In this document: positions 6,111-14,642 of the stretch, piece by piece
Layout: each line of letters starts with the position of its first letter
How positions within the stretch are numbered: the first letter of the stretch is position 1
Assembly (NCBI GenBank): GCA_944391705.1
Contig: CALXUN010000003.1
Location: forward strand, 26,208-90,207
Direction of reading: 5' to 3'
Length of the DNA: 64,000 bases
DNA from: an uncultured Alphaproteobacteria bacterium
GTDB lineage: Bacteria; Pseudomonadota; Alphaproteobacteria; RF32; CAG-239
The notes under the pieces: model-generated
Databases searched by the model: none
What the model was told of the DNA's origin: nothing
What the model saw: the letters and a program-made list of their open reading frames with translations, nothing else
Made by a program: the position numbers and the translations under genes

Positions 6111-6187
6111 CGCGGGGTAGAGCAGCCCGGTAGCTCGTCAGGCTCATAACCTGAAGGTCGTTGGTTCAAATCCTTCCCCCGCAACCA
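6111..6187 (+). tRNA. initiator-type tRNA-Met (anticodon CAT)
   Basis: 77 nt and near-identical in layout to E. coli tRNA-fMet. Acceptor stem is CGCGGGG/CCCCGCA with the C1-A72 mismatch. D stem is GAGC/GCTC, anticodon stem TCAGG/CCTGA, loop CTCATAA, and the three G-C pairs at the base of the anticodon stem are present. It ends in an encoded ACCA. By my reading the T stem (GTTGG/CCTTC) has two U-U mismatches. Confidence 0.8.
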
Positions 6188-6273
6188 GTTGTGAAAGAGG
6201 AAGTTTATACTTCCTCTTTTTTCATATCCAGAATACATTGAAAAGTTAAAGGAACCGCGGACTTCATCTTTTA

Positions 6274-6372
6274 TTTTGATGGTCGCGCCCTATTCTCCAG
6301 TATCTTTGTTTTTTTTGCCAAAATCGGTTCAAAACACCCCAAATATATACTTTTTTGAAGGTCTGAACAGCC
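6274..6372. repeat. left copy of the 99-bp direct repeat
   Basis: Matches 14544-14642 with one extra T in a T-run and one C/T difference. The flanks diverge immediately beyond ...gaacagcc. Confidence 0.9.
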
Positions 6373-6577
6373 CAAACAACGCCCTTCAAGAGATTACCAT
6401 GTTTTTATTGTTTCCACAGGCGCTTTTTGACCAAACTTCCTCTTTTGGTTCTTTTTGTATAAGAGGCAATTATATTGATACAAATATTTTTCTTTTAATT
6501 TCAATCTGATGCGTTTTTTTGAAAATTTTTGGAAACGGTTTTTGATTTTATACGGGTGATCCTGTCGGAGGTTCAAA

Positions 6578-6730
6578 ATGACAGACATTCAAAAAATCAT
6601 ACAACTTTTACTGCCGGAACTTTTGGCTTTGATTGATGGAAAAAATAGTCCGGATTTGTTGCAGAAAGGACTGGATAACAAGAGAATAAAGAGCATTCAT
6701 GTTGTTGAGAAAGGAGTTGAAAATGGTGGA
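6578..6730 (+). CDS. small ORF (50 aa) upstream of and overlapping the DUF2924 gene
   Basis: GGAGG lies 7 nt upstream of the ATG. Encodes MTDIQKIIQLLLPELLALIDGKNSPDLLQKGLDNKRIKSIHVVEKGVENGGN. Not in the ORF track. Confidence 0.3.
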
Positions 6731-7136
6731 AACTGATGTTTTACGGCTCAACGATATGAGTGTTGGCGAGTTAAAAGAAATGTGGCGGCAATATTTTGAC
6801 AGCGAGCCGATTTGGAAAACCAAGCGTTTTTATATTCCCAGACTTGCCTATCGAATGCAGGAACTTGCCTATGGCGGCGTTCCGGAACATATTAAAAGCC
6901 TATTGCTTGGCAAAACAGTTTTGAAACACGCCGAGGACAACGATGGCACGTGCCTTCCTCCGGTTGGAACCCGTCTGGTTAAGACCTACCGCGGAAAAGA
7001 ATATAATGTTATTGTTTCTACCGCCGGCTTTCAATTTGAGGGGATTTATTACAAAAGTCTGTCCGCGGTTGCTTTAAAAATCACGGGCAAACGAATTTCC
7101 GGACGCTTTTTCTTTGGATTGGGAGAGAATAAATGA
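6723..7136 (+). CDS. DUF2924-family protein (typical partner of large serine recombinases)
   Basis: Start MVETDVLRLNDMSVGELKEMWRQYFD... with an AAGGAG RBS. The 3' end overlaps the recombinase start (ATGA). Confidence 0.7.
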   Translation: MVETDVLRLNDMSVGELKEMWRQYFDSEPIWKTKRFYIPRLAYRMQELAYGGVPEHIKSLLLGKTVLKHAEDNDGTCLPPVGTRLVKTYRGKEYNVIVSTAGFQFEGIYYKSLSAVALKITGKRISGRFFFGLGENK

Positions 7137-7938
7137 AAACCATACGATGTGCCGTTTATACCCGAAAATCAACTGAAGATGGTCTGGAAAAAGAATTTAA
7201 CACGCTGGAAGCGCAACGGGAATCCGGCGAAAACTACATTAAAAGCCAGGCTTATCAAGGCTGGGAAATCATCCCCACCCATTATGACGATGGCGGTTAT
7301 TCCGGTGGCACATTGAAACGTCCGGCTTTGCAACAGCTTTTAAAGGATGTTGAGGCTGGAATGGTTGATATGATTGTTGTTTATAAAATCGACAGGCTGA
7401 CACGTTCGCTGATTGATTTTTCAAAACTTGTTGAAATTTTTGACCGTAATCAATGTTCTTTTGTGTCAGTGACGCAGAATTTTAACACTTATGATTCCAT
7501 GGGGCGCCTGACGCTGAATGTTTTACTTTCTTTTGCTCAATTTGAGCGGGAGGTTATTACCGAACGTATCCGGGATAAAGTGGACGCTTCCAAAAAGAAG
7601 GGCATGTGGATAGGCTTTTGCCGGCTGTCCGCGCTCCCAAATACCGGTGTTGTCTGCCGGATATTATCTACACGCCGCAGGAAATTGTTTTTATGGATAA
7701 GCGTCCGCTTAAAGTCCGTCCGAATCAGGAGCAGATATCTTTATGGAAACAGGTGATGCTGGAGTGGCTGCCCATATTATCGGTTGATGAACGCCGGCTG
7801 GTTTGGAAAAGAGCCAACCGTATTCCGTGGAAACTTCTTTGCCGGGAGTTTGGATTATGCAAAAGTAATTTATGTGCCAGGCATTCCAAGGCCTTGATGA
7901 AAATTGAGTTCTTTCTCAAAGGATGTAAAAATGTCTAG
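7133..7938 (+). pseudogene. large serine recombinase, frameshifted and 3'-truncated
   Basis: The N-terminal catalytic domain is intact (YTRKST..., the S nucleophile region, VYKIDRLTRS, ...KKKGMWIG). The reading then moves across two other frames (the frame at 7660-7938 encodes ...RPLKVRPNQEQISLWKQVMLEWL, the recombinase-domain helix). It stops after about 270 codons in total, whereas large serine recombinases run to about 500. Confidence 0.7.
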
Positions 7939-8103
7939 GACATCTTAGCTATAGACACTTTTGTGAAAAAGCCTTATTAATGAGGATATAATCAGGGACG
8001 AAGTATGAAAGCGTCCCTTTTTATGTTTTTTATTGACTTTTTGAAATTTAAGTTCTAAGGGAGATATAAATAAAAATTTTTATGTTTCACCATTAAAATT
8101 ATT

Positions 8104-12583: not shown

Positions 12584-12608
12584 TTTTACTCGTTACTTCG
12601 TTATTTGA

Positions 12609-13562
12609 TTATGATTGAAATTTAATATATTTCTCATGTGGCAAATGTTTGATTATAAAATCAATAGATAACTTTTCAGCGCATGAATATTCCCCTTTAG
12701 TTGTATGTAAAATTAAGTCTAAGTCGTTTCGTTTGCGATTAAATTTCGTAAATTTTAGATCAACAAGAATTTGCTTATTTTCATCGAAAGTAGAAATGGT
12801 AATTTTTTCTGCATCTTTATAAACACAAAGGATTATGTTATTTTCTTTGTATTTCTTTCTTAACTGTCTTGTACCTTCACTGCAATAGCTAGACGGAACA
12901 TATAAAATTTTATTTTCATATTCTTTCTCTAAATCCACGGGAAATACAATGTTAGGTTGCCATGTGGCTTTTTCGTTATCTTGATGAAAATATGTTTCAG
13001 GTAGCGTTATTGGAGAAAATGAAACCTTCGCCATATTCTGTTTACAGTCTGCTTCAGATGGAGCGCCTATCCAATCATCTGTTATGATGATACTTGCCGG
13101 AATAAGAAACAGAATGATAAAGAATGGAGTAAAATATTTTGACTTTTTAAAGATTAAGATAAAAGCCCAAACAACAGCAGGAAAGGAAAATGGATGCAAA
13201 AAACAAATTGGATTTCCACAGTCACTGATTGTCCGTCTGTAAAAATATAAAATTGTCATAAATACGGCAAACTCAATTAGTTTTACTACCCTTTTTAAAA
13301 ACCTCTTTTCAAAATAAGCATAAAATAAATTTAAGATGGAAATTACAAATGTCAGAATGTAACATAATATTCCCATTAACATTACTGGCAAAGCGCAATC
13401 CAAGCAGTCCAAAGAAATTCTTGTGGCTGAAGGATTATAAAATAAATCATAGTAAAGCCCAATGAGGTATAAAACAACATAAATAAGCAGGATATTCTGT
13501 ATGCTTTTCCACCAAGAAAATTCACCATCTTTGTAAAAGAAATATTGTTTAATTTTATTCAT
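12609..13562 (-). CDS. membrane protein (about 4 N-terminal TM helices plus a ~150-aa soluble C-terminal domain)
   Basis: 317-aa ORF in the AT-rich block, with Cys-rich loops. No motif. Confidence 0.5.
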   Translation of the reverse strand: MNKIKQYFFYKDGEFSWWKSIQNILLIYVVLYLIGLYYDLFYNPSATRISLDCLDCALPVMLMGILCYILTFVISILNLFYAYFEKRFLKRVVKLIEFAVFMTILYFYRRTISDCGNPICFLHPFSFPAVVWAFILIFKKSKYFTPFFIILFLIPASIIITDDWIGAPSEADCKQNMAKVSFSPITLPETYFHQDNEKATWQPNIVFPVDLEKEYENKILYVPSSYCSEGTRQLRKKYKENNIILCVYKDAEKITISTFDENKQILVDLKFTKFNRKRNDLDLILHTTKGEYSCAEKLSIDFIIKHLPHEKYIKFQS

Positions 13563-13930
13563 AAATTCCTCTAATAAATATATTTACCCGCCTTCTCTTC
13601 CTATAACAGCAAAAAACTCTGTGCACCTTATTGCACAGAGTCCTTTTACATGCTGGTTTATAAACAGATCTTTTTGTTAAATTAAGATAAGGCATTAGCT
13701 ATTGTCCTGTTAAAATAATTCTGCATTTATCTTTGCGTACTATAAATTATATTGCAAGTAATTTATTTTTTATTTTGTGCTAGCTTTATTCGATTATAAA
13801 AATAAAAGCAAAAACAATTTGTTACTAATGTTATGTGTTGTGTATAAACAATATATCAAGCATTAGTTGATATAATTTAGTTCTTCATAAAATAAAATTT
13901 TACTTTATTTTCTGTTTTTTGCCGCTAATA

Positions 13931-13945
13931 TTAACCAATGGTTAA
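13931..13945. promoter_or_regulatory. perfect palindrome TTAACCAATGGTTAA upstream of hlyB fragment 2
   Basis: 22 bp upstream of the ATG at 13968. Homologous to the site at 11829-11844. Confidence 0.4.
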
Positions 13946-13967
13946 CCTAAGTATGAACGAGTAAATA

Positions 13968-14636
13968 ATGAATAATACATCACCAAAGATAGATACCGGA
14001 CTAGCTTGTTTTGCAATTATGGCAAGCTATTATGAAAAGCCAATATCTCTTGACCAAATCAGACATAAATATGATAGGCAGAACTCTCATTTTGAAGAAT
14101 ATGAACTTTTGCAGTTAGCAAAAGAGTTTTCATTTAAGGCTCGGTTTGTTGATACAACATGGGAAAGGCTTGATAAAATTAACTTACCGGCAATTGCACA
14201 AGATAGAAATAAAAAATATTTTGTTATCGGCAAAGTGGCTGATGATAAGGTTTTGATTCAAGACCCGGCAAGAAGCAATCATCCTCAAGTATTAACGCAA
14301 GATGAATTTTTAGCAAGATGGAACGGCAGGCTCTTAATGATGACCTGCCGTGAATTTATTAATGGTAAAAATCGTAAATTTGATTTTTCATGGTTTATTC
14401 CCTCGGTAGTTAAATACCGAAGGTTGTTTGGTGAAGTGATATTAGCTTCATTCTTTTTACAGTTATTTGCGCTGGTGTCTCCGCTTTTGTTTCAAGTTGT
14501 AATTGATAAAGTATTAGTCAATCGAGGGCTTTCAAGTCTTGATGTTTTAATGGTCGCGCCCTATTCTCCAGTATCTTTGTTTTTTTGCCAAAATCGGTTC
14601 AAAATACCCCAAATATATACTTTTTTGAAGGTCTGA
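13968..14636 (+). pseudogene. 5' fragment of an hlyB-type T1SS ABC-exporter gene (copy 2), truncated at the direct repeat
   Basis: ...KFDFSWFIPSVVKYRRLFGEVILASFFLQLFALVSPLLFQVVIDKVLVNRGLSSLDVLMVA matches HlyB ...[36 protein letters not shown] up to nt 14551. There the 99-bp repeat begins and the ORF drifts into unrelated sequence. Confidence 0.8.
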
Positions 14637-14642
14637 ACAGCC
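14544..14642. repeat. right copy of the 99-bp direct repeat
   Basis: See 6274-6372. Confidence 0.9.

Follow-up and report, generated by a model that had tools for sequence, protein, structure and literature searches.

Why do two nearly identical 99-bp direct repeats flank a run of decayed genes beside the initiator tRNA-Met gene of an uncultured gut alphaproteobacterium? The repeats (R) lie in a 64-kb stretch of contig CALXUN010000003.1, lineage CAG-239, the whole of which is called the window here and corresponds to scaffold_80 of ENA ERZ28614322; retrieved loci and proteins are numbered with the prefixes L and P. A first-pass annotation had read the DNA between the repeats as a single R-bounded island that was horizontally acquired, decayed and immobile. 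Horizontal acquisition, decay and loss of mobility are borne out by our analysis, but the single element is not: the true limits of the segment are 6188 and 15858, and it is a composite of at least three unrelated elements. We consider it probable (roughly 75%) that the region is nothing more unusual than a tRNA integration hotspot where decayed fragments of phage, toxin-export and defence genes have piled up.

The repeats and their surroundings

The R copies occupy 6274-6372 and 14544-14642 on the plus strand, in direct orientation. They are ~96% identical, differing at three positions (one T-run indel and two substitutions). The 30- and 36-nt cores of R occur exactly twice in the window, against zero expected occurrences, and the sequences flanking the two copies are unlike each other on both sides, so that the earlier description of near-identical repeats with divergence immediately outside them was accurate. 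The same junctions have been assembled independently from other samples (L002, L006, L040 and L041), and the arrangement is therefore not a misassembly.

A search of 185,579 species genomes with the R core retrieved eight stretches with one exact match each, seven from records of uncultured gut alphaproteobacterial or proteobacterial metagenome-assembled genomes and one from a record labelled Lactobacillus johnsonii. R sits in a phage left arm in six of the eight; L053 carries R joined to a Fic gene, and L051 matches neither the window nor the phage (L020) by BLAST. With two copies in the window and a single match in each retrieved stretch, R as a dispersed repeat or miniature inverted-repeat transposable element is ruled out, and the common dispersed repeat that the first-pass annotation had named as fatal to its own reading was not encountered.

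Seven boundaries were mapped across the segment, and five were inspected at the nucleotide level. These five are short-homology joins, and 6187/6188 is the phage attachment point. The interval 10653-14543 has a GC content of 29.4%, against 38-42% in the flanks and 41.8% in the whole window; the AT-rich block reported previously is thus real, while the ~45% GC given for its flanks was too high.

The left repeat is an internal part of a phage arm

The left R copy starts 86 bp downstream of an initiator-type tRNA-Met gene (CAT anticodon; 6111-6187, plus strand), as had been proposed. The gene is called by ARAGORN and Rfam (57.5 bits), its initiator hallmarks C1xA72 and A11:U24 can be read from the sequence, and it was the only match in the Rfam scan. 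The 86-bp spacer between tRNA and R (6188-6273, plus strand) holds a terminator-like hairpin and constitutes the first bases of a prophage left arm. It is kept directly after tRNA-fMet in the intact prophages L020-L029, which occur in three chromosomal contexts in other gut genomes, adjoining lpxI, pgpA or luxS. That the left spacer might be decayed hlyB, making the repeat longer, was ruled out, its local alignment scores being no higher than those of shuffled sequences.

Between 6108 and 7614 the window spans tRNA, spacer, R, a 52-aa open reading frame (ORF), DUF2924 and the integrase N-terminus, and over this length it shares 96.5-97.4% identity with the left ends of L020-L029, with 97% nucleotide identity to positions 9387-10892 of L020. 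This colinear homology crosses both edges of the left R, and R is therefore not an element terminus or attachment (att) site. It is instead ordinary non-coding sequence of the phage left arm, with boundaries that have no counterpart in the phage.

In the intact prophages the order is spacer, R, 52-aa ORF, DUF2924, a 556-aa large serine integrase, GerE-like, DUF6291, DUF6362 and a 333-aa S-adenosylmethionine (SAM)-synthetase-like gene, followed rightward by a variable slot, a ParB-methylase and the terminase. The integrase of these relatives carries Resolvase, Recombinase and zinc-ribbon domains. A terminase was called in L020-L029, while tail J and endolysin genes were seen only on a related IMG/VR contig (L055/L056). 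A DUF2924 protein identical to that of the window is indexed in 3006 collection blocks, and the phage is a very common gut temperate phage with DUF2924 and a serine integrase, lying beside tRNA-fMet in many genomes.

The window retains a prophage left end at 6373-7614 (plus strand; Pfam and PHROGs assignments), comprising the 52-aa ORF (6578-6736), DUF2924 (6723-7136) and the first 161 codons of the integrase, all on the plus strand. The integrase stump (7133-7615) aligns to its relatives only as far as residue 161 of 556. Where the first-pass annotation saw a recombinase frameshifted twice, these 161 codons are fused to the 3' part of the DUF6362 gene (7604-7853, plus strand) by a deletion of ~2.8 kb at an 8-bp microhomology, ATGTGGAT. 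A variable phage slot follows (7854-8690, plus strand), which has no match to L020-L029 and holds a 180-aa ORF (8104-8646) without a Pfam, PHROGs or PADLOC match; in L028 the corresponding slot, just upstream of the SAM-synthetase-like gene, is filled by a BstA-like gene. The SAM-synthetase-like gene itself (8691-9566, plus strand; identified by Pfam) is truncated at its 3' end, with 283 of 333 codons kept, and is 93-96% identical to the intact prophage gene.

The three stretches 6108-7614, 7604-7853 and 8691-9566 thus match L020-L029 in order at 93-97% identity, immediately 3' of tRNA-fMet, which is what identifies a prophage remnant. The stretch 6188-9563 is the left end of the phage reduced by microhomology deletions. 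No structural genes are kept in this copy.

In the region ~14100-16300 of L020-L029, which covers this gene and the slot, the 333-aa SAM-synthetase-like protein belongs to a 90% cluster of 370 members, one of which is named as a Caudoviricetes SAM synthase. The slot after its gene in the intact prophages is hypervariable, holding Fic/RhuM, SocA-Panacea, DUF3800 or other genes. The gene and slot look like a counter-defence gene beside a defence or moron hotspot.

The right repeat lies between two gene fusions

The right R copy is a second remnant of the phage left arm, with a fusion junction at each edge. On its left is the second of two hlyB 5' fragments (13874-14557, plus strand), which keeps ~197 native codons before running into R. 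The ORF at 13968-14636 encodes a C39-like peptidase domain and shares 98% identity with P0001/L004, a longer HlyB fragment of another strain. At the nucleotide level the copy is 98.8% identical to the L004 allele, which runs on ...LDVLMVALICIGIF... where the window turns to R after ATGGT. The hlyB breakpoint proposed at the right R is therefore real, but it does not coincide exactly with the start of the repeat, as the first ~10 nt of R are hlyB sequence too (microhomology TTTTRATGGT).

On the other side R is joined to the last ~20 codons and stop of a 240-aa gene (14643-14703, plus strand), recognised by alignment with L038 and 28 gut contigs. A gene for a Fic/helix-turn-helix (HTH) protein follows (14783-15826, plus strand; Pfam Fic and HTH), which PADLOC assigns to PDC-S72 (E 3e-120). 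The Fic region has 96-97% nucleotide identity to L038-like loci, up to 15817. It is a candidate anti-phage defence gene and a remnant of an L038-like element. The native arrangement, an intact 240-aa ORF followed by Fic, was found in 28 gut metagenome contigs and in GenBank MT837206, and the native element further carries a 517-aa serine recombinase, two ParB/RepB genes, a PLD gene and an HTH gene.

The join between R and the Fic module sits in a 33-bp imperfect similarity between the 3' end of R and the 240-aa ORF. A search of metagenome contigs with the R/Fic junction pattern gave zero matches, and a shorter pattern gave only the native 240-aa gene and Fic, at 28 loci. With both edges of the right copy being gene-fusion junctions, and with prophage homology running across the left copy, the proposal that R is an att site or terminus fails at each end.

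In the native element (L038, 5737-7456) the 240-aa ORF before Fic is conserved and has no family match; it may form a two-gene unit with Fic. The right-hand deletion junction of the segment lies at 15813-15858 (no strand assigned), and core homology resumes at 15859. The piece 15813-15925 is found 1.4-5 kb further on in native Fic loci, beside a 181-aa gene. This non-coding piece of ~110 bp is 82-86% conserved in other species, again beside the 181-aa gene, and has no Rfam match; it may flank an attachment site or have a regulatory role.

Occupancy of the tRNA-fMet site in related strains

The limits of the variable region come from two phage-free loci, L012 and L013, which are ~98.5% identical to the window. 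They match it to exactly 6187 and again from 15859, with 739 bp carrying the 181-aa gene between tRNA and core. Based on this, the variable region is 6188-15858, with the Fic gene included. In L014 a tyrosine-integrase island occupies the same tRNA-fMet, with a 48-bp direct repeat of the tRNA 3' end on either side; the tRNA-Met gene at 6111-6187 is thus a host attachment point common to several mobile elements. The L014 island itself (1473-7066, 5.4 kb) carries a tyrosine integrase, a DUF3631 gene and an HTH_17 gene.

Forms of the site with a single R were also found. L007, from the same species and with its own single-nucleotide polymorphisms, has the upstream order tRNA, spacer, single R, Fic. 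The same order occurs in L053, from another species with other flanks, and there the R/Fic junction is identical to that of the window. The empty-site variants that the first-pass annotation predicted therefore exist, and we take the tRNA-spacer-single R-Fic form as the apparent empty form for the 8.27 kb. L054, from another species, has a different and less-deleted junction, retaining 163 bp more of the phage and ~55 bp more of the 240-aa gene; it is a phage-to-Fic deletion without the toxin locus. As the 33-bp imperfect repeat is present there, the final R/Fic junction is derivable from the L054 state.

L040 and L041 share the R...R frame and the hlyB/R junction of the window around a different interior. 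In these, DUF2924 breaks off near codon 6-14 against a toxin gene at about codon 845 (toxins of 716 and 893 aa, with RTX repeats), after which come seven small minus-strand genes and a single hlyB stump of a different allele. Within one species the site therefore exists as tRNA, 739 bp and core (L012, L013), with a tyrosine-integrase island (L014), with a single R and Fic (L007), and as R...R (L040/L041).

The T-arm of the tRNA-Met (6159-6175) has a T-stem, GUUGG/CCUUC, with two adjacent U-U mismatches, the same as in L012/L013 and L020-L023. The stem is fully paired in L007 (GGAGG/CCUCC) and in L024/L025/L028 (GUAGG/CCUGC). The tRNA-Met gene may be impaired, or its 3' half may have been exchanged by integrating elements.

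Proposed history and alternatives

Taken together, these states make it probable that 6188-15858 consists of the stacked remnants of elements that arrived repeatedly at one tRNA-fMet hotspot and were later trimmed by short-homology deletions. An early copy of the phage would have integrated beside an L038-like element and decayed to tRNA-spacer-R-Fic, a state that would survive in L007 and L053, with L054 as an apparent earlier intermediate. The toxin-secretion locus would then have entered between tRNA and R. Homology would have held it on the tRNA side, while on the R side the join would have formed at TTTTRATGGT, the ~10-nt microhomology that hlyB shares with the start of R, and the old spacer would have been lost. 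A new phage copy could subsequently have integrated at the tRNA beside the toxin 3' end, bringing a second spacer and R; this arrangement, phage beside the 3' end of a toxin gene, is seen intact in L055/L056. Finally, the window and L040 lineages would each have lost the phage body and the 3' end of the toxin gene, through independent and non-nested deletions. The deletions differ, running from SAM-synthetase-like codon 283 to toxin codon ~365 in the window and from DUF2924 codon ~6-14 to toxin codon ~845 in L040/L041.

Several points weigh against this history. While the parts and junctions can be read directly, the order of events is inferred. A tRNA 3' fragment at the phage right end, as a tyrosine-type att duplication would leave, was found at none of 22 right ends, so that such a duplication was rejected. 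An intermediate of the form tRNA-toxin...hlyB'-R-Fic lacking the newer phage was not found, and the L007 contig stops 170 bp past R, with the far side lying beyond the contig. Finally, the window and L040 have hlyB alleles that are ~17% apart, and both run into R at the same nucleotide. A junction shared by alleles this divergent implies recurrent use of the microhomology or later gene conversion, and gene conversion among hlyB stumps does occur, as seen from a hybrid allele (P0002).

A rival reading is one 8.4-kb island placed beside tRNA-fMet by its own recombinase and since immobilised by decay of that recombinase, R being the att sites or termini. In its favour, the segment is bracketed by direct repeats, the remnant of a recombinase is found immediately within the left R, and a single-repeat empty form exists in L007 and L053. 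That empty form is, however, the only mark of an att-bounded island that was found, terminal repeats and an intact repeat-generating recombinase being absent. A prophage of the 40-kb class contains the left R in its interior, with homology extending past both edges of R; neither R copy overlaps the tRNA, and the right R is fused at one edge to hlyB and at the other to the stump of the 240-aa gene. The interior is a mosaic of phage and toxin-locus pieces, and L040/L041 hold other contents in the same frame. The recombinase, moreover, is a large serine integrase, a class that exchanges at a 2-bp core and does not create long direct repeats and is not known to make repeats of 99 bp. Hence we regard the single island as very improbable.

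Two other explanations concern how and in which direction the R...R form arose. A circular or linear DNA in which R, the phage left end, the toxin locus and the hlyB stump were already linked might have been captured in a single step by a resident tRNA-spacer-R-Fic site, through a Campbell-type crossover within R or through one-ended homologous recombination and a microhomology join; R would then have been duplicated once, without two generations of phage. The empty form in the same and in another species, the ~10-nt microhomology at the right junction and the mere three differences between the R copies would all be expected from this. The non-nested deletions, on the other hand, point to a common ancestor in which the R copies were separated by at least 845 toxin codons and by far more of the phage, which implies an incoming piece of tens of kilobases, and ordinary phage integration beside a toxin gene is seen directly in L055/L056; we consider capture in one step unlikely. 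Alternatively, the R...R form may be ancestral, and the single-R forms of L007 and L053 would then be secondary deletions between the repeats rather than true empty sites. Repeats of 99 bp at 96% identity are adequate for RecA-dependent deletion, and the single R of L007 combines left-like and right-like variant positions. This reversal, which we judge rather unlikely, sits less easily with L054, a simpler and independent phage-to-Fic deletion lacking the toxin locus from which the R/Fic junction can be derived, and with L053 belonging to a different species with different flanks. It touches the direction of change only, and both single capture and an ancestral R...R form leave the identities of the parts unchanged.

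Homologous recombination between the 99-bp repeats can now delete the 8.27 kb, and it is likely that nothing between them is functional as a system.

The toxin-secretion locus between the repeats

The DNA from 9564 to 14557 is a decayed type I secretion locus, in which the stump of an FrpC-like toxin gene lies together with genes for membrane proteins and with 5' fragments of two hlyB copies. The stump of the RTX toxin gene (9549-10652, minus strand) keeps the first ~365 codons, encoding a variable N-terminal domain and a self-processing module (SPM), and is cut at ~9563 against the phage SAM-synthetase-like gene at codon 283 of the latter. Residues 182-351 match the SPM of FrpC (PDB 6SJW; E 1e-41; aligned to FrpC 415-586), and the module also has a precomputed PF26745 assignment. 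The FrpC SPM (415-591) starts at an Asp-Pro scissile bond with a catalytic Asp (PMC7078468), whereas the window module starts at Ser181-Pro182. Of 119 homologues scanned (P0185-P0303), 102 showed the motif, and in 101 of these serine precedes the SPM proline.

A gene for a 268-aa multi-pass membrane protein (10645-11451, minus strand) lies immediately upstream of the toxin, its ORF overlapping the toxin start. The first hlyB 5' fragment (11771-12380, plus strand) has a C39-like domain (Pfam PF03412) and is truncated after ~166 codons. It is 84% identical to the second over 582 bp (11771-12351 against 13874-14454). Between the two, in the AT-rich block, is a gene for a 317-aa membrane protein (12609-13562, minus strand), and a doubtful 162-aa ORF lies at 12095-12583 (minus strand). 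The 268- and 317-aa proteins have no Pfam, PHROGs or PADLOC match, and the 162-aa ORF no PHROGs match. With hlyB stumps of ~166 and ~197 codons, no hlyD and a toxin cut after the SPM, functional type I secretion is not encoded here.

The 317-aa protein belongs to a 90% cluster of 83 members, with relatives in defence or mobile islands elsewhere. In L030-L037 the 317/320-aa protein occurs in unrelated islands beside a small resolvase, a CTD10/MC6/DUF2326 trio, a tyrosine integrase or an OLD-TOPRIM/UvrD pair, with no hlyB nearby.

Longer relatives of the toxin have 716 and 893 aa (L040/L041) and 2215 aa (L055); RTX repeats (PF00353, HemolysinCabind) were found in the L040/L041 proteins, the ones that the domain scan covered. 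On the IMG/VR contig 3300029619_000255 (L055/L056), phage tail J, endolysin and small membrane genes are followed directly by the 3' end of the 2215-aa toxin gene and its 265-aa upstream partner; the pair of toxin and 268-aa gene recurs there with identities of 58% and 68%. Toxin genes and tRNA fragments are both missing from the remaining 21 phage right ends. With a toxin at one of 22 such ends and no viral contig carrying an hlyB relative, the idea that phages regularly carry the toxin locus as cargo is not supported.

Among the 119 toxin homologues, 90 have the SPM alone in common and carry unrelated N-terminal domains, and many of the ORFs end 5-25 residues past the SPM, like orphan cassettes. 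Arrays of SPM-containing ORF fragments and small minus-strand genes lie upstream of hlyB in L042 (4392-7728) and L040 (3334-9510), with short repeats of 50-135 bp recurring between members.

These observations (SPM-only sharing, ORFs ending past the SPM, the L042 arrays, co-varying pairs of toxin and 268-aa gene, and the hybrid hlyB allele) lead us to suggest, tentatively and as a possibility on the unlikely side, that the decayed locus may represent an undescribed polymorphic toxin system of reverse polarity in gut Alphaproteobacteria, in which type I-secreted RTX proteins carry a variable N-terminal payload. The payload may be freed by a Ser-Pro, FrpC-like SPM, and the upstream membrane protein may act as immunity gene, the 268-aa protein being immunity-like by inference only. 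Cassettes may be swapped using the SPM-coding region and the hlyB 5' end as handles, which would leave orphan arrays and tandem hlyB stumps behind. A search of one literature library on SPM-based polymorphic toxins or their immunity genes turned up none that was relevant.

Compared with FrpC/ApxIVA-type RTX proteins exported by HlyB/HlyD, the window locus shares the SPM homology, the RTX repeats of its L040/L041 relatives and the clustering of toxin stump with hlyB 5' fragments, the first of which is divergent from the operon of membrane protein and toxin. It differs in that its toxin gene breaks off directly past the SPM, that hlyD is missing and hlyB survives as two 5' stumps, and that Ser stands before the SPM proline instead of the catalytic Asp of FrpC. 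As in the orphan toxin/immunity arrays of contact-dependent inhibition (CDI), Rhs and Maf systems, a conserved handle accompanies a variable toxin domain, small membrane-protein genes lie alongside, and both hybrid alleles and truncated copies in tandem occur. The polarity here appears reversed, however, the variable domain being N-terminal and the putative handles being the SPM and the hlyB 5' end, and the toxin and immunity functions are putative.

Genes beyond the segment

Further downstream, at 18847-20061, an RtcB gene encodes 404 aa, against 257 aa in 12 of the 15 listed members of its 90% cluster, and an RlaP-family gene follows it. A DUF362 and a methyltransferase gene downstream of this pair are present or absent by strain.

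Discussion

The locus is a tRNA-linked accretion hotspot, a known kind of locus that is well documented here. It resembles other such hotspots, for example the accretion sites at Enterobacteriaceae tRNA genes, in that several unrelated elements use one tRNA, presence and absence vary from strain to strain, deletion remnants remain, and direct repeats were brought by successive arrivals. It differs in that the repeats are a 99-bp internal piece of the arm of a serine-integrase phage and not att copies of the tRNA 3' end, that the host is an uncultured gut alphaproteobacterium, and that a secretion-toxin locus is sandwiched between two phage generations. The phage in turn resembles large-serine-recombinase phages of the phiC31/Bxb1 type in the position of its integrase gene, at the phage end beside the attachment site, in the domain set of the intact relatives and in the lack of a long att duplication at the 22 right ends. 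Here the integrase is paired with DUF2924, and the window copy differs in keeping only 161 of 556 codons and no structural genes. A further difference is the attachment abutting tRNA-fMet, which is generally more typical of tyrosine integrases.

The value of the locus is modest: it provides a junction-by-junction example of a tRNA hotspot gaining and eroding mobile DNA in an uncultured gut bacterium. It illustrates that direct repeats bracketing a segment can be relics of two successive arrivals of phages of the same family and not the ends of an element, which calls for caution when islands are called in metagenome-assembled genomes. As by-products, the analysis brings to light a gut prophage of very wide distribution that inserts at tRNA-fMet by means of a serine integrase and carries a variable defence or moron slot, a candidate defence gene (PDC-S72 Fic) together with its native partner gene, and an FrpC-like toxin family with swapped N-terminal domains and a predicted Ser-Pro processing site. 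This toxin family is a more interesting lead than the R repeats themselves.

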